From positions 4,305 to 68,304 of the forward strand of contig CAVOEB010000002.1 of NCBI GenBank assembly GCA_963694715.1: a stretch of DNA of 64,000 nucleotides. The letters run 5' to 3'. The notes under the pieces were generated by a model that was not told the DNA's origin, ran no database searches, and saw only the letters and a program-made list of their open reading frames with translations. The position numbers and the translations under genes are program-made. Positions 9,918 to 31,117 of the stretch are shown one piece after another (position 1 is the stretch's first letter; the number at the start of each line of letters is the position of its first letter). Origin of the DNA: Alphaproteobacteria bacterium (GTDB lineage: Bacteria; Pseudomonadota; Alphaproteobacteria; UBA828; JAPUJA01).

Positions 9918-10945
9918 AGCACCTCCCGGCGAACCTTGACGACGAGCCAGAGGAAGAACGGCGCGCCTACCAGGGCGGTAAAGACGCCGAGCCGAAGCTC
10001 GGGCCCGGTTGAGACCAGACGCACGGCGATGTCTGCGGCCAGGGTCAGCGACGCGCCGCCGAGCGCACTCGCGGGCAACAACACGCCCGGCCGGTGGCCG
10101 ACCAACGGGCGTAGGATGTGGGGCACGACCAACCCGATAAAGCCGATACTGCCCGCCACCGACACGGCTGCGCCGACGGCGAGAGCGACGCCGAGTACGA
10201 GACGCAGCCGCAGCCGCTTGAGATCGACGCCGAGCGTGCGCGCGGTCTCTTCGCCTAACGACAGGGCCTCAAGAGGCCGGCCCAACCCGGCTAATAAGAT
10301 CCAGCCCACCACCATGAAGGGGGCGGCGAGCTGGACATGCTCGAAGCTGCGGTCGGCCAGCGAGCCGAGCAGCCAGAACAGGATCTCCATCGCCGCGTAG
10401 GGATTGGGCGCGAGGCTGAGCGCCAGAGAAGTGAGCGCGGCGGCGAGGCTGTTGATGGCGATGCCCGCCAGGATCAGTGACAACCCACTGCTGCCGCGGC
10501 CCGCGAGCAGGTGGATCAGTACCACCGAGACGAGCGCGCCGGCCATGCCGCCGAGCGGCAAGGCGAGGGGAAAGGCGGCGGCGAACCCGAAATAAAACAT
10601 CACCACGGCGCCCAGCGCCGCCGAACCAGAAACTCCGATCAGCGAGGGCTCGGCCAGCGGATTGCGCAACAGGCCCTGGAGCGCCGCGCCGGCCAGCCCC
10701 AGGGTGGCGCCGATCATGGTGGCGAGGATCGCCCGGGGCAGGCGGATTTCCTGCAGGATCAGCGCCAGGACCGAGCCGTTGTCGGCAAACAGGTGGCCGT
10801 AGGATTCGATCAGCGGGATCGGCGCGCGGCCGACCCCGAGCGAAAGCAAGAAGAGGACCAGAACGAGCAAACTGAGGCCGGCGAACAGCCAGCCGTCGCT
10901 CCGCCCGGCGAGGCGGCCCGATGCGCTCGCCGCGGGGCCGCTCAC
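9914..10945 (-). CDS. btuC: FecCD-family ABC permease
   Basis: 343-aa polytopic membrane protein of the FecCD/BtuC family. Confidence 0.75.
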   Translation of the reverse strand: MSGPAASASGRLAGRSDGWLFAGLSLLVLVLFLLSLGVGRAPIPLIESYGHLFADNGSVLALILQEIRLPRAILATMIGATLGLAGAALQGLLRNPLAEPSLIGVSGSAALGAVVMFYFGFAAAFPLALPLGGMAGALVSVVLIHLLAGRGSSGLSLILAGIAINSLAAALTSLALSLAPNPYAAMEILFWLLGSLADRSFEHVQLAAPFMVVGWILLAGLGRPLEALSLGEETARTLGVDLKRLRLRLVLGVALAVGAAVSVAGSIGFIGLVVPHILRPLVGHRPGVLLPASALGGASLTLAADIAVRLVSTGPELRLGVFTALVGAPFFLWLVVKVRREVL

Positions 10946-11825: not shown

Positions 11826-13763
11826 CTAGAAGTCGAACCCGACGCCGAACAGACCGGCGATGCCCGGGCGGGCGAATCCGTCGGCGATTTCGTAGTCGCG
11901 ATCAAACAGGTTTTCCACCCGGCCCTGCAGGTGCACGCCGTCACCCAAATCGTAGGCTGCCGCAACATCGACGACCGTGTAGCTCGCCATGCGCACGCCG
12001 CCCACATCTACGGTCGAGCCCGTGTGTAGGGTTGCGAAATTGACGGTCAGGAGATCGAGCGGATACCAGGTCAGATTGACCGACGCCTTGTGCTTTGGCC
12101 GGCGCAGCAAATCCTCGTTGATCGACGAATCGAACGCGCGGGTAAAGGTGTAGTCGAGAGCAACCAGAACCTCGGGCAACGGCTGCACCTCGATAAAGGT
12201 TTCGATCCCGCGGGTTTTCGCCTCGTCGACGTTGCGGGTGGTAAACAGACCGGCTCCGGCGTCGAACACGAAGCCATCGATCAACTCGTCGATGTCGTTC
12301 TCGAAATAGGTCGCGCCCAACACCAGGCGTCCTGCAAGCAGCTCCTGCTCGACCCCCGCATCCCAGCCGAAGCTCTTCTCCGGCACGAGATCGGCATTAC
12401 CGAAAAACAGTCCGCTCACGCCGCCGAACAGATCGACCAGCGACGGAGCCTTGAAGCCGGTGCCGACGCTGGCGCGAAATGTCGTCGCCGTCTCGAGATG
12501 GCGATAGCCAAGACTCGCGCCGTAGGTGGTTTCGGATTCGAAGTCCCGGTTGTTGTCGCCGCGCACGCCAAGCGTGCCGAATACGCGCTTCGCAAACTCG
12601 AATTGGTACTCGGCGAAGGCACTATAGGTGCGCGACTGATCGGCAAAATTGAAGAATGCGCCGCCTCCGCTCTCGCCCTGTTCACGGCGGGCCTCAAGCC
12701 CAAGCACCAGCGTGCCGAGTGGGGCAATCTGGAAATCGTTGAGCAGGGCCGCCTCCATGACCGTCCCGTCGAAGATCGAGCGGCTGGTCTCGCCGACCCC
12801 CGATTCGGGGGGATTGTCGTTCTGGAAATCCTGATCGTTGAACCCGCCCGTCAACCGGGCACCCCAGAGATCGTCAACGAGGTCGGCCTTAACGTCGAGC
12901 TGAGCCAGACGGATCGTTCTAGAATCTTCGGCGTTCACATCGTCCGCCCCGAAGCTATCGATTTCGGTGACAGCCCTGACATACTGGCCGTAGAGGTCGA
13001 CCGTCACGCTCTCAGTCGGTGAAAAACCCAAGGCGATAGACGCGACATCGTTGCGGAAGCCGTCGTTCTCGGGGTTGCCCTCATCGTCGGGTGCGATCGA
13101 GACGCCATCGGTCCTGAGCTTCGCCAGATTGAGCTGCATGGTCACCGGCCCGGCATCGCCTCCCAGCCCCCAACGGCCCGAGACGGTCCGAAAGCTTCCG
13201 GCTTCAACGTGAGCGGAACCGGTGATAGGTCCGCTGACCCGTTTGGTGATAACGTTAATCACCCCGCCGATGGCGTCGGAGCCGTACAATACGCTGCGCG
13301 GACCCCGGACGATTTCGATGCGCGCGATATTATCTACCAACAAAGATTGCGGATCGAACACTCCGCCCGATCCAGCCGGATCACCGGCCCGCCGGCCGTT
13401 GACGAGAAAGAGCACGTGATTCGACTCGGTGCCGCGCATGAAGATTGAGGTCGCCGTTCCAGCACCGCCCAACTGGACGAGATTGAGCCCGGGTACGCTT
13501 CGCAAAGCGTCGTTGACGGAGCGGTGCTGACGCTCCTCAATTTCCTCAGCCGTTATAATCGTGATGGAACTCGCGACGCTCGTCGCCGGGGTGGGCAGGC
13601 TGGTCGCGGTAACGACGACGGGAGACGTCGTCCGGGTTGCCGGCTCCGGGTCTGCGGCACCGACGGTCGAGCTGATCGAAAGGGCGGCAAGAAGCGACGC
13701 ACCGGCCGCGACAGCGAGGCGACGAGAGGGCAACGATCGAATAGAACGTGGTGATTCGGGCAT
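11826..13763 (-). CDS. btuB: TonB-dependent outer-membrane receptor, probable cobalamin receptor
   Basis: Start MPESPRS at 13763, preceded by GGAG. Signal peptide, TonB box SPVVVTATS, plug and barrel, C-terminal aromatic (…GFDF). Lies downstream of a cobalamin riboswitch. Confidence 0.8.
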   Translation of the reverse strand: MPESPRSIRSLPSRRLAVAAGASLLAALSISSTVGAADPEPATRTTSPVVVTATSLPTPATSVASSITIITAEEIEERQHRSVNDALRSVPGLNLVQLGGAGTATSIFMRGTESNHVLFLVNGRRAGDPAGSGGVFDPQSLLVDNIARIEIVRGPRSVLYGSDAIGGVINVITKRVSGPITGSAHVEAGSFRTVSGRWGLGGDAGPVTMQLNLAKLRTDGVSIAPDDEGNPENDGFRNDVASIALGFSPTESVTVDLYGQYVRAVTEIDSFGADDVNAEDSRTIRLAQLDVKADLVDDLWGARLTGGFNDQDFQNDNPPESGVGETSRSIFDGTVMEAALLNDFQIAPLGTLVLGLEARREQGESGGGAFFNFADQSRTYSAFAEYQFEFAKRVFGTLGVRGDNNRDFESETTYGASLGYRHLETATTFRASVGTGFKAPSLVDLFGGVSGLFFGNADLVPEKSFGWDAGVEQELLAGRLVLGATYFENDIDELIDGFVFDAGAGLFTTRNVDEAKTRGIETFIEVQPLPEVLVALDYTFTRAFDSSINEDLLRRPKHKASVNLTWYPLDLLTVNFATLHTGSTVDVGGVRMASYTVVDVAAAYDLGDGVHLQGRVENLFDRDYEIADGFARPGIAGLFGVGFDF

Positions 13764-13994
13764 GGCTGACTCCGTTGGGAAACGTGGAATCCGCTGACGC
13801 CGGACGAGAGACGGGGATCGCCCGGGTAACAACCGAGCAAAGCGCGGCACCCGGACGGATGATGAGACGATCGAGCTACGGAACTTGTGAGCGGCCACCC
13901 CGAACATCCCTACACGGCAACAGCAGTTCCCTGCGTCACCACATACGGATTAACCGTCCCGTCGGGAGTCCCCACCCAACGGGTATGCGACGCT

Positions 13995-14170
13995 ATCCGA
14001 CGGCAGGTCTCCTGGCTTGCGGGTCACCGCCCGACACCCGGCCTTCCCAGTTTCCCAGTGGCACACGAGGGGTGCGGACTCGCCGCTGACAGTTGCGGGG
14101 GCAGCCACGTTTCGGTCTCAATCCGACCGCACCGTGTTCCCTTTTCAGCCCGCAGAAGCGGGCACCGTCG
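13995..14170 (-). ncRNA. Cobalamin (AdoCbl) riboswitch in the btuB leader
   Basis: Minus-strand sequence reads GGTGCC…GGGAACACGGTGCGGTCGGATTGAGACCGAAACGTGGCTGCCCCCGCAACTGTCAGCGG…GTGCCACTGGGAAACTGGGAAGGCCGGG…AAGCCAGGAGACCTGCC. The B12-box and the conserved GCCACTG / GGGAAGGC elements of RF00174 are all present. Confidence 0.8.
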
Positions 14171-14188
14171 CTATAAGGACTATAGGCC

Positions 14189-21396: not shown

Positions 21397-21472
21397 TGGC
21401 GTCCCCAGGGGGAGTCGAACCCCCGTTTTCGGCGTGAGAGGCCGACGTCCTAGGCCACTAGACGATGGGGAC
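21397..21472 (-). tRNA. tRNA-Glu (anticodon CUC)
   Basis: Minus-strand sequence GTCCCCATCGTCTAGTGGCCTAGGACGTCGGCCTCTCACGCCGAAAACGGGGGTTCGACTCCCCCTGGGGACGCCA folds as a cloverleaf. Anticodon loop CTCTCAC gives CUC. Close match to E. coli tRNA-Glu. Encoded CCA. Confidence 0.85.
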
Positions 21473-21623
21473 CAGCGGCAAGGGGGCATGTGATAGCCCA
21501 AGGTCGCGGGAAAATCAATTGCGCCGCGTAGCGTCGGGGCCGGATGGCGACACTGCGGACCAGGCGATTGTTCCACCGAAGGCCTCTTCGACCGTCTTAC
21601 CCACACTTGCCCGGCACAGCTTC

Positions 21624-22184
21624 GGGTGGCCTGTGTCGCTGCTGTGCGGCGCATTGGCGCTGAGCATAGCCGGTTGCTCCGACATTCACGCCGACGCGGT
21701 GACCGGCCTGAAGCAGATCGTCGCAGAAATCGACGACACGCCGTCGAACGACATGCTGCTCGCCGACCGGGGCCACAAGGCGCTGAGCGAGGCCAATTAC
21801 CGCGACGCCGAGGTCTATCTGACTTCGGCGCTGGAAGCCAACCCGTCGAATCCCCACGCGCTCCTCAACATGGGCGTCGTCTTCGAGAATACCCAGCGGA
21901 TCGATCAGGCCCGTGAGGTGTATGCCCGGGTCATCCTGATCGATCCTCCAACCGAAGCCGAAAAATCGACCGACGAGGGGATGACCGGCGCGTCGCTTAC
22001 CGAAATCGCACGCCAGAACCTGGTGCGGCTCAACGCGCGCACGGTGGTGCCCGACAAAACACCTCAGTTCTCGACCGGTGCCGCCCGTCTCGAGATTCTG
22101 AACAAAGTGCTAGCCGCCGGTCTGATAAGCACCGGAAAATTCGCCGCCCGGGCGCCGAGAGCCCGGCGCTGCCGCAGAACGTGA
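21624..22184 (+). CDS. TPR-repeat lipoprotein (intact N-terminal part)
   Basis: In-frame GTG at 21624 (the track ORF begins inside the tRNA, so the real start must be later). Lipobox LALSIAGCS, TPR-like repeats. The R-rich C-terminal tail suggests the true reading frame is lost near the 3-prime end. Confidence 0.5.
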   Translation, partial: GWPVSLLCGALALSIAGCSDIHADAVTGLKQIVAEIDDTPSNDMLLADRGHKALSEANYRDAEVYLTSALEANPSNPHALLNMGVVFENTQRIDQAREVYARVILIDPPTEAEKSTDEGMTGASLTEIARQNLVRLNARTVVPDKTPQFSTGAARLEILNKVLAAGLISTGKFAARAPRARRCRRT

Positions 22185-22310
22185 TCCCACCGCTAGCGAG
22201 CTAAATTATCGACCGGCTGTCGAGCCTCGAGCTTTACCGGCAAACCGAACTTATCACCAATCAGGTTTACGGCTTCGAGCGCAGCGCCCTGCTCGAGGCG
22301 TTGTTGCCCA

Positions 22311-22662
22311 TTGCGCCCGCTCCGGTTGCTCCCCGCGCCCCCAACACCCGACGCAAGCGCCCCCGATCCCCTCACGCCGACCCAGACGAGTGTGGCGCCC
22401 GCCGCCTCCAGCGGCGACATGCGCGTGCATATCGCCTCCTATCGCTCGGTCGAAGATACAAAAACGGGGCTGGGCGGAACTGCGCCAGGCCAATGAAGAT
22501 CTGCTGGGCCCTCTTTCGCTCGATATCGCCGAGATCGATCTCGGACCGGGCCAGGGGATATATTACCGGGCCCAGGCCGGCCCGGTTGGCGACATCTCCG
22601 CGGCACAGGCGCTGTGCGCCCAGCTCAAGTCCCGCGAGCTTTACTGCGTGCCGACGATCTGA
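22311..22662 (+). pseudogene. SPOR (peptidoglycan-binding) domain coding region split by a frameshift; probably the original C-terminus of the upstream TPR lipoprotein
   Basis: Track ORF 22311..22496 (frame 0) ends …PAASSGDMRVHIASYRSVEDTKTG. Track ORF 22390..22662 (frame +1) carries GWAELRQANEDLLGPLSLDIAEIDLGPGQGIYYRAQAGPVGDISAAQALCAQLKSRELYCVPTI. Together they form one SPOR domain with the junction at the AAAAACGGGG tract near 22461-22470. Confidence 0.45.
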
Positions 22663-25699: not shown

Positions 25700-26089
25700 C
25701 TATTCGGCAGCCACCGCGGCTTCGACCTGGTCGCCGGTGTAGATGAAGAACGCCTTGCGGACTTTGTCGCTGTGAATTGTCCAGGTCACGGTTTCGCCCT
25801 TCGTGGCGTAATGCGTATCGCCGGGGCCGAAGTTGTGCCCGGAGCCGTCGGGGAAGGTGATCGTGATGTTGCCTTCCAGAATGGTCGCCATCTCGTTCCA
25901 GGGATAGGTCGCCTTGAAACTTCCCTTGGTGCATTCCCAAACACCGACGATCAACGGAGTTTCAAGCGAGCCGTAATCGACACGACCGGATTGCTGCGGG
26001 GTGCCGTCAAGAAATTCGGCACCGCTCTCTTCGAGCGAAGGCCACGGATCGAGCCCGCTCTGGGACAGGTTTTGTGCATAATCAAGCAT
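25700..26089 (-). CDS. Cupin-fold protein (cupin_3/DUF861-like), paralog 1
   Basis: Start MLDYAQNL at 26089 with AAAGGA 6 nt upstream. About 80% identical to the next ORF. Confidence 0.7.
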   Translation of the reverse strand: MLDYAQNLSQSGLDPWPSLEESGAEFLDGTPQQSGRVDYGSLETPLIVGVWECTKGSFKATYPWNEMATILEGNITITFPDGSGHNFGPGDTHYATKGETVTWTIHSDKVRKAFFIYTGDQVEAAVAAE

Positions 26090-26213
26090 GGATTTATCCT
26101 TTGGGTTGGGGGCCCGCGACACGCTTCGTGCCGCTCGTTACGGGCCTGGACAGATTGTCGGATCGTCGGGCGCGGATGTCACATTCGGGCAGGACGTGGA
26201 AGCCACCACGCGA

Positions 26214-26241
26214 ACAAAAAAAGGCGGCTTCACGCCGCCTT
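26214..26241 (-). terminator. Rho-independent terminator after cupin paralog 2
   Basis: Minus-strand hairpin AAGGCGGCGTGAAGCCGCCTT followed by TTTTTTTGT. Confidence 0.5.
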
Positions 26242-26312
26242 CTGGATAGTCCCGGTCGTCTATGACCGTCCTGCAAGCCTCTCAAACCACTTGCTTCGTT
26301 TGTTTTTGCCGG

Positions 26313-26717
26313 TTATTCGGCCGCGACCGAAGCCTCGACCTGATCGCCGGTGTAGATGAAAAACGCCTTACGGACCTTCTCGCTGTGGATCGTCCAGGTC
26401 ACGGTATCGCCCTTCGTGGCGTAATGCGTGTCGCCGGGGCCGAAGTCGTGCGAAGAACCGTCCGGGAAGGTGATCGTGATATTGCCCTCAAGGATGGTGG
26501 CAAGCTCGTTCCAGGGATAGCTCACCTTGAAGCTGCCCTGGGTGCACTGCCAAACGCCAACGATCAACGGGGTCTCGAGCGAGCCGTAGTCGATGCGGCC
26601 GGACTGTGCGGGGCTGCCGCTCAGGATCTCGGCGCCGATCTCCTCGAGCGGATGCCACTGCTCTAGCCCATCCTGGGAAAGATTTTGTGCGTAATCAAGC
26701 ATAGGGGTCTCCCTCAA
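26313..26717 (-). CDS. Cupin-fold protein (cupin_3/DUF861-like), paralog 2
   Basis: 134 aa, near-identical to paralog 1 over most of its length (…GSLETPLIVGVW.CT.GSFK.YPWNE.ATILEGNITITFPDGS.H.FGPGDTHYATKG.TVTWTIHS.KVRKAFFIYTGDQVEA.VAAE). Confidence 0.7.
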   Translation of the reverse strand: MRETPMLDYAQNLSQDGLEQWHPLEEIGAEILSGSPAQSGRIDYGSLETPLIVGVWQCTQGSFKVSYPWNELATILEGNITITFPDGSSHDFGPGDTHYATKGDTVTWTIHSEKVRKAFFIYTGDQVEASVAAE

Positions 26718-26764
26718 TAAAAATTGCGTTCCGCGACGGATCGTCCGGGCGGAGTCTGCGGCGG

Positions 26765-26793
26765 ATTATGTTGCCGGACCCCTTGCCTGTCAA
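26765..26793 (-). promoter_or_regulatory. Sigma70-like promoter for cupin paralog 2
   Basis: Minus strand TTGACA-N17-CATAAT, about 75 nt upstream of the start. Confidence 0.35.
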
Positions 26794-26903
26794 CCGAGAA
26801 AACCACCACTCCGGCACATCATAATTTCTAAAAATCGTATGTTTTCAACGCCTTGATGATTTTAGAGACGCCGCTTCGTGTGCGGCCCGCTGTCGCAGGC
26901 GGG

Positions 26904-27287
26904 TCACGCCGCGGCGCGCGACGGCGCGACGTTCTGCAGACAGAATATCTTGCGGAAGGTCTCGGTCACCTCCCAGATTTCCGTGTCGCCCTTGGGTGTG
27001 AAAACCGTATCGCCGGGACCGACCTCGTAGGTTTGCCCCGCGGGATCGGTGATGCGCGCGCGGCCCGCGAGCACGATGTAGGTTTCGTCGCCCTGGCCGG
27101 TCCAACTCATGGTTCCCGGCGTGCATTCCCAGATCCCGACCTGTGTTGCGCTCTCGGCGGTGCCCACGTCGAGGCGGCCCGACTGGTGCGGATCGCCGGC
27201 GACTACCGCGGCATAATCAAGCTCGTCGAACGGTTCCCAGGCTTCGAGTTCGCCGCCATCGCGGCCATCGGCCCTGTATTGAAGCAT
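26904..27287 (-). CDS. Cupin-fold protein, divergent paralog 3
   Basis: 127 aa. Shares the …GSLETPLIVG(I)WECTPG…FTPKGDT..W…RK.F motif skeleton with paralogs 1 and 2 at roughly 35-40% identity. Confidence 0.6.
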   Translation of the reverse strand: MLQYRADGRDGGELEAWEPFDELDYAAVVAGDPHQSGRLDVGTAESATQVGIWECTPGTMSWTGQGDETYIVLAGRARITDPAGQTYEVGPGDTVFTPKGDTEIWEVTETFRKIFCLQNVAPSRAAA

Positions 27288-28526: not shown

Positions 28527-28557
28527 CGGGGCCGGCCTTACGCCGGCCCTTTATTTT
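28527..28557. terminator. Terminator hairpin between convergent rpoH and the 28551 membrane-protein gene
   Basis: GGGGCCGGC-ctta-CGCCGGCCC followed by TTTATTTT. Confidence 0.45.
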
Positions 28558-29066
28558 AAGATCTCGGTCTTGTCGCGTAGAGCTAAATCCCAACCCTGTT
28601 CGAGTGCCGCGTCTTCGGCACGTAGCCGGTTAGCGAGATATTGCAGCATGGTCTGGACAAATACGGTGGTCAGGATCGGCGCGAGCCAGACGAGGCCCCA
28701 GCCGATCGCTGCCGCTCCGTACATGGCAAAAAAATTGAACGGGTTAATGAGGTGGGCCACGGTGCGGTCCATGCCGAGGCCGCCCTGCCAGAGCCCCAGC
28801 ACCACGGGCGCAACGCCCGCGGAATTCAGCGTCGCAACACATTGAAAGGTGTGCCGCCCCGGCCGGTTCTCGACGACGAAAGCAACGATCGCCGGCAGCA
28901 TGCCAGCCAGAACCGTCAAGACCATGGGCATCGAGACCATCGATCCGAGCCCGGTGGCAACCATAAGTATCGAAATCACCGTAAAGGCGCGTAGCGGCCG
29001 GCCAGTCGGTCGCGCCACTGTTGCCGCTCCGCGGCGGGGCGCTCCCAAGGCGCCCGACTTACTCAC
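28551..29066 (-). CDS. Hypothetical polytopic membrane protein
   Basis: 171 aa with 4 predicted hydrophobic helices. Its start overlaps the stop of the upstream ORF (ATGA). Confidence 0.5.
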   Translation of the reverse strand: MSKSGALGAPRRGAATVARPTGRPLRAFTVISILMVATGLGSMVSMPMVLTVLAGMLPAIVAFVVENRPGRHTFQCVATLNSAGVAPVVLGLWQGGLGMDRTVAHLINPFNFFAMYGAAAIGWGLVWLAPILTTVFVQTMLQYLANRLRAEDAALEQGWDLALRDKTEILK

Positions 29067-29509
29067 GGCATTCCCCGAAAGGCGAAACCGAACACAGCGA
29101 TAGCCAAAAGCAGGTAGAAGGTGCCCGTCGCAATCCGGTGACCGTAATATTCGGCGATCGCCTGGGGTGCGTCATCCTGCTTGTCGATCCGGGCGATCTC
29201 CGCTCGGATCTGGGGCCGGCGCGCCACCGCAGCGCGAAAACCTTGCCGGCCACGCTGTGCGCGCACGGGATTGGTCGCGGCATGAAACAGCCGGGCCAGC
29301 GAACCGTTCGATGCGGCAACCGCGAGATCCTGCTTGAGCTGACGGCGCAGCCCGCGATTGCGCAAGTTCTCAGCCGCTCTGGCCAGGCGCGCCGCCAGCC
29401 AACGGGCCAGGTTGGGAAGCTTGCGTACGCCGGAGCGCTGCTGAACTAGCGCGAGTACGGTAAGCGCAGCGACTGCGTCGCGCCCCGTATCGGCAGCGGT
29501 CGGGCCCAT
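29063..29509 (-). CDS. Hypothetical protein with a C-terminal transmembrane anchor
   Basis: 148 aa with an Arg/Ala-rich soluble part and the terminal helix TFYLLLAIAVFGFAFRG. Translationally coupled to the downstream membrane protein. Confidence 0.45.
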   Translation of the reverse strand: MGPTAADTGRDAVAALTVLALVQQRSGVRKLPNLARWLAARLARAAENLRNRGLRRQLKQDLAVAASNGSLARLFHAATNPVRAQRGRQGFRAAVARRPQIRAEIARIDKQDDAPQAIAEYYGHRIATGTFYLLLAIAVFGFAFRGMP

Positions 29510-29674
29510 CGCCTGCAGTTCTTCCTGATCGGGAATGGTGAGCCGGCTGCCGATGAAGGCAGCGACCTGCTTGTCGAACGGACTGACCTTGGGATCATAA
29601 GATTTCGCCGCGGCCTCGAGGCCTTCAAGCAGGCTATCGAAATCGTCGGCCCAGCGACCCTCGAGAAGCGGCGT

Positions 29675-30773
29675 CTAGCAGGGCAGCGACGGATTGAGTT
29701 CGTAAAGGCAGCGCTCGACGCCGTAACCACATCCCCGGTCACGCAGCATGGCTTCAAGCTTAATGAAGCTGCTATGGAACGTCGCCAGCCGGGTCTGTCC
29801 ATCGGGCCGCTCCTCGATCGAGCGCGCGGCGAGCCCGCTGGCAATTACCTGCCCGGCAATCTGAACCGCCTCGTCGGACCCTTCGGTCACGGCTTCAGCC
29901 AACGCGGGCCCGAAACCGTCGAGATTTGCGGCGAAGCTCTTGTAGCGGACCGGCCCCTCAGGATCGAGGATCACACAGATGCGCCCAACCAACTCGTCTT
30001 CGCTGAGCGGCTGGCATCCCCCCGTGCCACGCTCGGCCGCATCGAGCACGGCGACGACGGACCGGGCCATCTCGGTATTGTTGACGGAACGATCAAGCCA
30101 GAGGGCGAGGCGGCCTTCGCGCACGGCTCGATGGGCCGCATCCCAGTGGCACCCAAACGCACAGGCCAAGGCCCGCGGATGGTCATAGCCGGTTCCAAGG
30201 AATTCGTAGGGTTGGTGCGAGCGGCGTCGGGGTTCGGCGAAGGACGGGCCGCCGCGGCGTCCCGCGAGCCAGCCCTGCAGCCGCTCGAGCGTCCAGCGGT
30301 ATTTCGGAACGTCGGTGAGCAACCCGGCCAGCAACTCTGTCATCGCGAGGGTCGCGTTGCACAACCCCGCGATGGCCTCGAGCGATCCGACGGCGAGACG
30401 CCGGGCAATCACCGTGTCGTCGTCAACGCCGGCCAGGGGGTGACGCCCGGCCAGAAGCGCCACAAGTGTGACGCCCAGCGCAAAAAAATCAGCCTCGGGC
30501 GTCCCCTCGCCCCGGCCGGACGGTTGCGCCATGGCGCTCTCGATGGGCTCGTAGGCGAGAGGCTGACTGCGCCCGGGCGCCGCCGCTCGCGCACCCGCCT
30601 ATAACGACCCGGCTGCCCTTATCATCAAGAGAATAGATGGTTTCCGGACGCAGCGAGCGGTGAACGAGACCGCGGCCGTGCAACACCGCCAAGCCCTCCA
30701 CCAGAGCCGGCAGCACGCCGCGGACTAATTCGTCTTCTGACCACGGCTTGGGCGGCCCTTCGGCCGGAAACAA
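29675..30773 (-). pseudogene. Ser/Thr protein-kinase-like gene, frameshifted and catalytically degenerate
   Basis: Track ORF 30489..30773 holds the hinge and catalytic loop (…LAVLHGRGLVHRSLRPETIYSLDD…). Track ORF 29675..30532 (different frame) holds the APE/subdomain IX-XI region (PLAYEPIES…GEGTPEADFFALGVTLVALLAGRHPLAG…). The HRD Asp is replaced by Ser, no DFG, no recognisable Gly-loop upstream. One frameshift lies near 30550-30590. Confidence 0.5.
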
Positions 30774-30943
30774 CGCGCCGCCGACAGGCCAATCGAGGAC
30801 GAGGAGGCGCGACTGGCGTCCGCTGCGCGGCTGGGGACAACGATACTGTGCGCCGCCAGCCGCAGCGGGCAGCGGTGGCGCAGTGTACGCAAGGTTTCCA
30901 GGGCTTCGCCCCGGACGGGTGCGCCCGTCCGGCAGATCAGACC

Positions 30944-31117
30944 TTACAGCGAGGCGTTGGAGTCCTCGGGATCGACAACCTCGAACGCTTCGGCAAACGG
31001 GGGGTCAAGCTCGGGCAAGCGGCGATCGAAGCAGATGCGATAGCAACCTTCCAAATTTCGCGATTCACCTGCCCGTTCGCCATCGTCGACCCGGGCTTGT
31101 ATAGATTCTCGTGTCAT
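30944..31117 (-). CDS. Small ORF (57 aa) with a strong ribosome-binding site, function unknown
   Basis: AGAGGA 5 nt upstream of ATG. MTRESIQARVDDGERAGESRNLEGCYRICFDRRLPELDPPFAEAFEVVDPEDSNASL. Lies in a lower-GC pocket and is not in the ORF track (shorter than 60 aa). Confidence 0.3.
   Translation of the reverse strand: MTRESIQARVDDGERAGESRNLEGCYRICFDRRLPELDPPFAEAFEVVDPEDSNASL

Follow-up and report, generated by a model that had tools for sequence, protein, structure and literature searches.

A probable recently inactivated copy of a conserved gene pair, encoding a pseudokinase and a small membrane protein, between purA and rpoH in an alphaproteobacterium

Introduction

The current atlas of bacterial pseudokinases recognises seven families, ActPs1-3, GLW, CP1, DYD and DLHK (PMC12599244; bioRxiv 10.1101/2025.01.12.632604). 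Here we examine a kinase-like locus in a stretch of 64,000 nucleotides (nt) of alphaproteobacterial DNA (assembly GCA_963694715.1, contig CAVOEB010000002.1, positions 4,305 to 68,304; this whole stretch is referred to as the window), which an initial annotation had read either as a decaying signalling gene or as a pseudokinase-based membrane module that had not been described. We judge, with a probability of about 0.8, that a two-gene operon, which in relatives encodes an intact tail-anchored pseudokinase and its partner, has recently been inactivated at this locus, where the partner open reading frame (ORF) is still intact.

The protein family to which this locus belongs (the window family) can be set beside several described systems. 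Like the Hanks-type kinases of PF00069 (PknB, WNK, CaMK), its members have a complete bilobal kinase fold with the structural landmarks, but they lack the Gly-rich loop, the beta3 Lys, the HRD Asp and the DFG Asp and score at or just under the Pfam threshold. With the atlas families it shares the character of a conserved bacterial family in which all three catalytic-triad positions are degraded. Judged by their descriptions, however, the atlas families differ from it in motif, architecture or taxon: the window family carries no COG3899, helicase, PAS or PQQ, and instead has a domain of about 390 amino acids (aa), a terminal anchor and an obligate downstream membrane gene. The nearest atlas family in taxon and membrane association is GLW, which is defined by GLW in place of HRD and by poly-Leu/Trp at the beta3 Lys (PMC12599244), whereas the window family keeps H-R, in the loop motif H-R-[AGS]-I-R-P, and reads A-x-A-[FY]-A-A in that strand.

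Two further systems offer functional analogies only. EssB/YukC of Firmicute type VII secretion (PMC12599244) likewise combines an N-terminal cytoplasmic pseudokinase and a degraded triad with a single transmembrane helix, and its presumed role as a scaffold with membrane partners resembles the one we propose. In EssB/YukC, however, the helix is followed by an extracellular domain and the gene lies in a type VII secretion cluster, whereas in the window family the helix lies at the very C-terminus and the extra domain in the cytoplasm, and the neighbouring genes are serA, hisZ, purA, rpoH, cupin genes and rluD, with no secretion genes among them. The MviN/MurJ-linked domain of Mycobacterium (ActPs3; PMC12599244) is also a non-ATP-binding, membrane-attached kinase fold with a regulatory role, but it is fused to a large flippase, whereas the window family consists of a separate tail-anchored protein beside a protein of about four helices, and the latter has no detectable relation to MurJ.

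Results

One gene with four disabling lesions

The ORF list cuts the pseudokinase region of the window into pieces of 57, 94, 285 and 148 aa. Three-frame translation showed that minus-strand frame 0 runs from 31117 to a TGA at 29065-29063 and is broken by a TAA (30946-30944) and a TAG (29677-29675), and that the protein-like reading shifts to another frame between about 30836 and 30584. The following features were assigned.

29063..31117, minus strand: pseudogene of a tail-anchored pseudokinase of about 682 aa, from the ATG at 31117 to the TGA at 29065-29063.
29063..29509, minus strand: residual 148-aa ORF, a C-terminal fragment of the pseudogene beyond the TAG, in frame 0 like the upstream part.

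When joined and frame-corrected, the translation was 77-84% identical to the 682-aa proteins P0001-P0004 over 100% of the length (E = 0), and it matched 15 more full-length relatives at identities down to 30%. A tblastn search covered residues 1-682 of P0001-P0003 on the window with three collinear segments, in two frames and with two in-frame stops, and the 148-aa ORF aligned with residues ~535-682 of P0001. Read in this way, 31117..29063 is a single gene, to all appearance the decayed orthologue of the protein of about 682 aa. The initial annotation had placed the gene within 28551-30900 and counted the 148-aa ORF as a separate tail-anchored protein; the start in fact lies at 31117, 217 nt upstream of that end, and the supposed separate protein is the C-terminus of the same gene, with only the TAG between the two. 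A consensus scan for a sigma-70-like promoter upstream of the locus found none, the consensus being uninformative for an alphaproteobacterium.

The same syntenic slot between purA and rpoH holds an intact gene in the related loci L001 and L003, and against these the window copy has two stops and two frameshifts. To place the lesions, the window gene was aligned by MAFFT, at the DNA level, with its orthologues from L001 and L003. An exact lookup of the window's purA product returned seven contigs, of which three were taken for comparison.

L088: JGI 3300010883, a 157-kilobase (kb) contig, 100% identical to the window over 4201 nt.
L089: Logan assembly of SRR9019762, 100% identical over 3658 nt.
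L090: JGI 3300009706, one mismatch over 2876 nt; the contig stops before lesion 4.

The changes in the window gene are as follows.

30944..30946, minus strand: lesion 1, an in-frame TAA where relatives have TAC (Tyr58), from the DNA alignment with L001/L003 and tblastn; present in L088, L089 and L090.
30835..30836, minus strand: lesion 2, a +2 frameshift, with an extra CC at 30836-30835 in the CCCC run 30836-30833; present in L088-L090.
30580..30590, minus strand: lesion 3, a +1 frameshift, with an extra G at ~30584 inside GCGGCGGCG; present in L088-L090.
29675..29677, minus strand: lesion 4, an in-frame TAG in place of the CGG or CAG of relatives (Arg/Gln ~479); present in L088 and L089.
30017..30019, minus strand: non-disabling in-frame 3-nt insertion, GGA, from the alignment with L001 and L003.

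Every lesion that L088, L089 and L090 cover is present there base-for-base, in assembled contigs of three metagenome datasets, and the gene calls on these contigs give the same fragments of 57, 285 and 148 aa. The single indel near 30550-30590 that had been proposed at the outset thus corresponds to the extra G at ~30584, but it is one of four disabling lesions.

The intact family is a pseudokinase

The frame-corrected protein falls into two large parts and an anchor, the first of which has the fold of a protein kinase.

30260..31060, minus strand: kinase-fold (pseudokinase) domain, ~residues 20-285, from Pfam, a profile search against the PDB and an AlphaFold2 model.
30639..30662, minus strand: catalytic-loop remnant HRSLRPET, from direct reading.

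With the corrected protein of the window, Pfam Pkinase (PF00069) reached 31.2 bits, just under its gathering threshold of 31.7, and a PF00069 assignment is precomputed for several intact homologues. The family profile matched PDB kinases over residues ~54-285 (E = 2e-12). AlphaFold2, given 17 sequences, modelled P0001 with a mean predicted local distance difference test (pLDDT) of 86.6 and a predicted template-modelling score (pTM) of 0.81, and the N-terminal domain of the model superposed on WNK3, PknB, BRAF and Aurora with target-normalised template-modelling scores of up to 0.75 (Foldseek E = 1e-10).

Column statistics were computed for 166 members, no two of them sharing more than 50% identity. 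The family catalytic loop reads H-[RG]-[AGSN]-I-R-P-[DTN]-N; at the position of the HRD Asp we counted A in 106 members, G in 26, S in 15 and N in 10, with D in 0/166 and Ser in the window, and the catalytic-loop Lys is replaced by Arg in 153/166. DFG is replaced by L-G-[ED]-C, with the G present in 165/166 members, and the window reads IGGC. No N-lobe column exceeded 30% Lys, the beta3 strand reading A-x-A-[FY]-A-A, and a GxGxx[GAS] pattern occurred in just 23/166 members, scattered in a variable N-terminal tail, so that no conserved Gly loop was found. Other kinase landmarks are kept: the catalytic-loop His and Arg, the APE Glu (E189), the alpha-F Asp (D209) and the subdomain-XI Arg (R273).

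The sequence columns thus mark the family as a true pseudokinase, in which the degenerate motifs are a conserved family state and not decay of the window copy. Direct reading bore out the initial description of a kinase-like minus-strand frame with HRSLRPET and with neither DFG nor Gly loop, and frame correction does not bring back the HRD Asp. The suggestion of a decaying signalling gene holds for this locus, by virtue of its lesions and of the intact orthologues in close relatives. P0001-P0004 and the window share a Thr (window 30639..30641) in place of the catalytic-loop Asn conserved in 159/166 members (HRSLRPET against HRAIRPDN), and A59G is a further change of the window clade; both reflect drift within the clade, at near-invariant positions, that is older than the pseudogenisation.

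It is possible, although we hold it doubtful, that the intact family is instead an atypical enzyme or a nucleotide-binding switch with a rearranged active site, comparable to SelO and SidJ, in which case the window would have lost an enzyme. 'Pseudokinases' that use alternative chemistry are known (PMC6858067; PMC8548325), and the cleft and activation segment hold near-invariant polar residues, namely H152, R156, N159 (159/166), G173-[ED]174, E189 and R201 in GRGxG. Such an enzyme, however, would have neither a Gly loop nor a beta3 Lys, nor any alternative conserved Lys in the N-lobe, to hold the nucleotide phosphates, and the intact P0001-P0004 already carry Thr in place of the conserved Asn, which argues against an essential catalytic role of that residue.

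A family-specific C-terminal domain and membrane anchor

The remainder of the protein, from residue ~290 to 682 (~390 aa), is helical, contains three invariant motifs and ends in a helix of about 65 residues, of which the last ~20 are hydrophobic.

29135..30259, minus strand: family-specific helical domain with the motifs LDPxGPxRY, GYGxERCxYELNP and DRHxAAF, the last of which reads DKQVAAF in the window.
29078..29134, minus strand: C-terminal transmembrane anchor IATGTFYLLLAIAVFGFAF, ending four residues before the stop; hydropathy peak 2.05, last 24 residues.

A hydrophobic C-terminus was present in 17/17 aligned homologues, with the helix ending 2-4 residues before the stop. The ~390-aa domain matched nothing in Pfam and nothing meaningful among PDB sequences, and it has no relative of solved structure; Pfam and NCBIfam searches with this domain and with the small partner protein gave nothing above noise. 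The NCBIfam matches of the protein to LanL, Mad6 and AfsK were partial, confined to the kinase domain and far under the cut-offs.

The pseudokinase gene is paired with a small membrane-protein gene

Directly downstream on the same strand lies the second gene of the pair.

28551..29066, minus strand: intact gene for a small membrane protein of 171 aa and about four hydrophobic helices, from the ORF listing and hydropathy.
28528..28550, no strand assigned: GC-rich terminator-like hairpin between the convergent small gene and rpoH, with 9 pairs and a T-rich tail on the plus strand.

The hairpin is the single site of a consensus scan and a consensus match only, such scans giving no more sites here than in shuffled sequence. 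The 171-aa hydrophobic ORF with about four helices was found as first described, but the junction, given as an ATGA overlap, reads GTGA: the GTG start at 29066-29064 overlaps the pseudokinase TGA at 29065-29063. L003, L091 and L093 have the same junction with the same GTG start, and the window protein matches their orthologues from end to end at 80-84% identity, the residues that begin at the GTG included. Residues P47, P58, N81, G84, W93, G122, W123, P130 and W159 of the small protein are near-invariant, and it belongs to no Pfam family. Automatic calls begin the small gene at internal ATGs, which gives products of 124-148 aa (L088 6542..6955, L091 6181..6555, L093 2346..2753, L003 10103..10549). 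Because the peptide is conserved from the GTG onwards, we take the 166-171-aa form as the true product in the window clade.

Hidden Markov models of both proteins were run over the stop-to-stop ORFs of 87 loci. The pseudokinase was a single, uninterrupted ORF in 87/87, and the small gene followed directly downstream on the same strand in 86/87, the exception being a contig that ends 120 nt past the pseudokinase; in nearly all loci the distance from the pseudokinase stop to the partner start was -4 to +22 nt. Clustering of the neighbours in 82 loci placed purA immediately upstream in 73, with hisZ in 52, and rluD downstream in 56, with rpoH in 30. At least 1277 clusters at 50% identity reached E <= 1e-30, and matches were found in 262 species genomes, mostly of Rhodospirillales-type Alphaproteobacteria, including the cultured genera Magnetospirillum, Paramagnetospirillum, Oleispirillum and Elstera. 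To judge from these genomes, the gene pair is a vertically inherited feature of the core genome. The idea of an undescribed pseudokinase membrane module accordingly survives for the intact family, with D at the HRD position in 0/166 members and the partner in 86/87 loci, but as a module of two genes and not of three; homologues do co-occur with the small membrane gene.

Two sets of loci depart from this picture in context or label. In L004/L005/L006 (1..7908) the pair that includes P0017, the most divergent protein examined, lies away from purA and is still paired (L004); it follows phage-like genes for a terminase large subunit, an S24 peptidase/repressor and a methyltransferase, and is either a relocated copy or has a prophage upstream. 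Metagenome-assembled genomes labelled Comamonadaceae, Actinomycetota or Candidatus Marinimicrobia also carry the locus (L017, L024, L035, L045, L051, L057, L066, L068, L081 and L083), and these ten are most likely mis-binned or mis-labelled contigs rather than cases of horizontal transfer.

A second inactivation was found in L001, the closest relative (84% identity), where the pseudokinase is intact and the partner is split after residue 75 by a remnant of ~330 bp. This insert (10277..10606) is a remnant of a DDE_Tnp_1_4 transposase, and an IS66-family element (12066..13514) adjoins rpoH; L001's clade seems to carry active or recent insertion sequence elements and gene decay. Both genes are intact in L003, L091 and L093. 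Two sister lineages have thus each lost a different half of the pair, which fits a unit that turned dispensable in the clade.

The intact partner also bears on whether the window gene has undergone fission, its fragments, especially the 148-aa piece with the stalk helix and the anchor, now being separate working proteins coupled to the small gene. This piece retains the anchor and the GTGA junction with a partner gene that is still intact and has a ratio of non-synonymous to synonymous substitution rates (dN/dS) of about 0.25, and its ATG (29507..29509) was created by a window-specific Leu-to-Met change (QAMG against QALG in homologues). That ATG could permit re-initiation, leaving a stalk-plus-anchor fragment still coupled to the partner gene. 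We nevertheless regard fission as improbable. No relative has a split protein, the 148-aa part was not seen as a separate conserved gene in any of the 87 loci, and by eye no clear or convincing ribosome-binding site precedes its ATG. Just upstream of the fragment the invariant DRH motif has decayed to DKQ, D622G lies within it, and the N-terminal two thirds of the gene hold three further lesions, which speaks for decay and not for a tidy split.

The lesions are reproduced in other datasets

An 18-kb block of the window is syntenic with L003, and 17 of its genes are full-length and collinear. All seven lesions in this block sit in two genes, the pseudokinase gene and a TPR/SPOR gene, the only other broken gene there, with one stop and two frameshifts. 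We treated the pseudogene as real because such confinement of seven lesions to two genes is unlike random consensus error, and on the assembled sequence the lesions are not assembly errors.

It is in our estimate very unlikely that errors of sequencing or assembly produced the stops and frameshifts and that the organism has an intact gene. Two of the lesions do fall where errors are common, in a C homopolymer and in a GCG repeat, and the counts of non-synonymous and synonymous changes on the window branch (34:64) resemble those of a gene under selection. Against this stand the exact reproduction of the four lesions in contigs of other datasets (the Logan assembly of SRR9019762 and two JGI metagenomes), the nature of two of them as base substitutions to stop codons, and the 17 genes of the block without any lesion. 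Programmed recoding, by frameshifting or stop read-through, that still yields the full-length protein is scarcely credible: the +2 and +1 shifts do add to +3 and so leave the outer parts in one frame, but recoding would take four independent events, including read-through of both TAA and TAG, no relative has any recoding site, and the stretch that separates the two shifts keeps a conserved reading in its own frame, which two simple insertions would produce.

The gene appears to have been inactivated recently

Pairwise dN/dS was 0.23 between the window and L001, 0.19 between the window and L003, and 0.20 between the intact copies of L001 and L003. On the window branch we counted 34 non-synonymous and 64 synonymous single-step changes, a ratio not above that of the L001 branch (22:32). 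At the 48 positions that are at least 90% conserved among the 166 members, the only private changes of the window were H516Q, in the invariant DRH motif, and D622G; E174G, at the position equivalent to DFG, is also private to the window. These figures fit a very recent inactivation without being positive evidence for it. To judge from the branch counts and the lesions, the gene is one that was long under purifying selection and was inactivated recently.

Other features of the window

The TPR/SPOR gene is a second pseudogene with several lesions.

21465..22662, plus strand: TPR/SPOR lipoprotein gene, with the TPR part intact (21609-22106) and the SPOR part spread over three frames (22142-22306, 22302-22469 and 22462-22662), with an in-frame stop near 22205.
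25703..27287, minus strand: three tandem Cupin_3 paralogues between rluD and rpoH.
13985..14184, minus strand: cobalamin riboswitch, 116.7 bits.
21400..21472, minus strand: tRNA gene.

The orthologue of the TPR/SPOR gene is a single 361-aa protein in L002 and two gene calls in L003. The cupin triplet recurs in L002 and L003, and one copy is fragmented in L001 and L091. The riboswitch and the tRNA gene are the only Rfam matches in the window at the gathering threshold.

Discussion

Our results are best explained by the recent inactivation, in the window, of one member of a two-gene operon that is inherited vertically between purA and rpoH/rluD in many Rhodospirillales-type Alphaproteobacteria. 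The intact protein most likely does not carry out phosphotransfer, because it has a kinase fold without any catalytic-triad residue or Gly loop; it would instead serve as a cytoplasmic scaffold or conformational switch. Its C-terminal helix and long stalk helix would tether such a protein to the inner membrane, the long helix could also allow dimerisation, and through anchor and stalk the protein may form a membrane complex with the small partner, which would be translated from the same mRNA by coupled translation. With two nonsense codons and two frameshifts, the window copy would give no full-length pseudokinase, and the function of the module would be lost in this organism.

A broader proposal, on which we would give even odds, is that these proteins form an undescribed family of bacterial pseudokinases, consisting of a tail-anchored, triad-less kinase fold and a domain of ~390 aa with a new fold, which works only in complex with the protein of about four helices and is fixed in the order purA-X-Y-rpoH/rluD. 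Searches of Pfam, NCBIfam and the full-text literature found no description of the pseudokinase or partner family. As a separate candidate we considered an anti-phage defence kinase (PADLOC MkoA, Mad6, PD-T4-6) and rejected it: the matches were weak, confined to the kinase domain and at most 41 bits on partial profiles, the small protein gave none, and the pair occupies a core-genome position.

Several points weigh against the account given here. The ratio of non-synonymous to synonymous changes is not raised on the window branch, so that the neutral phase must have been short or some fragments must still be constrained. L088-L090 may include the window's own source, which would leave two independent confirmations of the lesions and not three, and an intact second copy of the gene may sit elsewhere in the genome. 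Conserved polar residues surround the dead site (H152, R156, N159, E/D174, R201 and the GRGxG motif), and these would also suit an atypical catalytic or ligand-binding function. The family is known from sequence and model, under public names such as 'hypothetical protein' or 'protein kinase domain-containing protein', and we infer the physical complex with the small protein from gene order alone.

For the locus itself, the analysis corrects the annotation to one pseudogene and one intact gene, where automatic callers give three or four 'hypothetical proteins'. If our reading is true, the reciprocal inactivation, in which the window lost the pseudokinase and L001 the partner, would amount to genetic evidence from nature that the pair acts as one functional unit and became dispensable in this clade. 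As natural knock-outs, the two sister lineages also hint at where to seek the conditions under which the module can be dispensed with. Bacterial pseudokinases are a small and almost unstudied class, to which this locus points as the sign of a further large family, and its presence in cultured hosts makes direct testing of the family possible.

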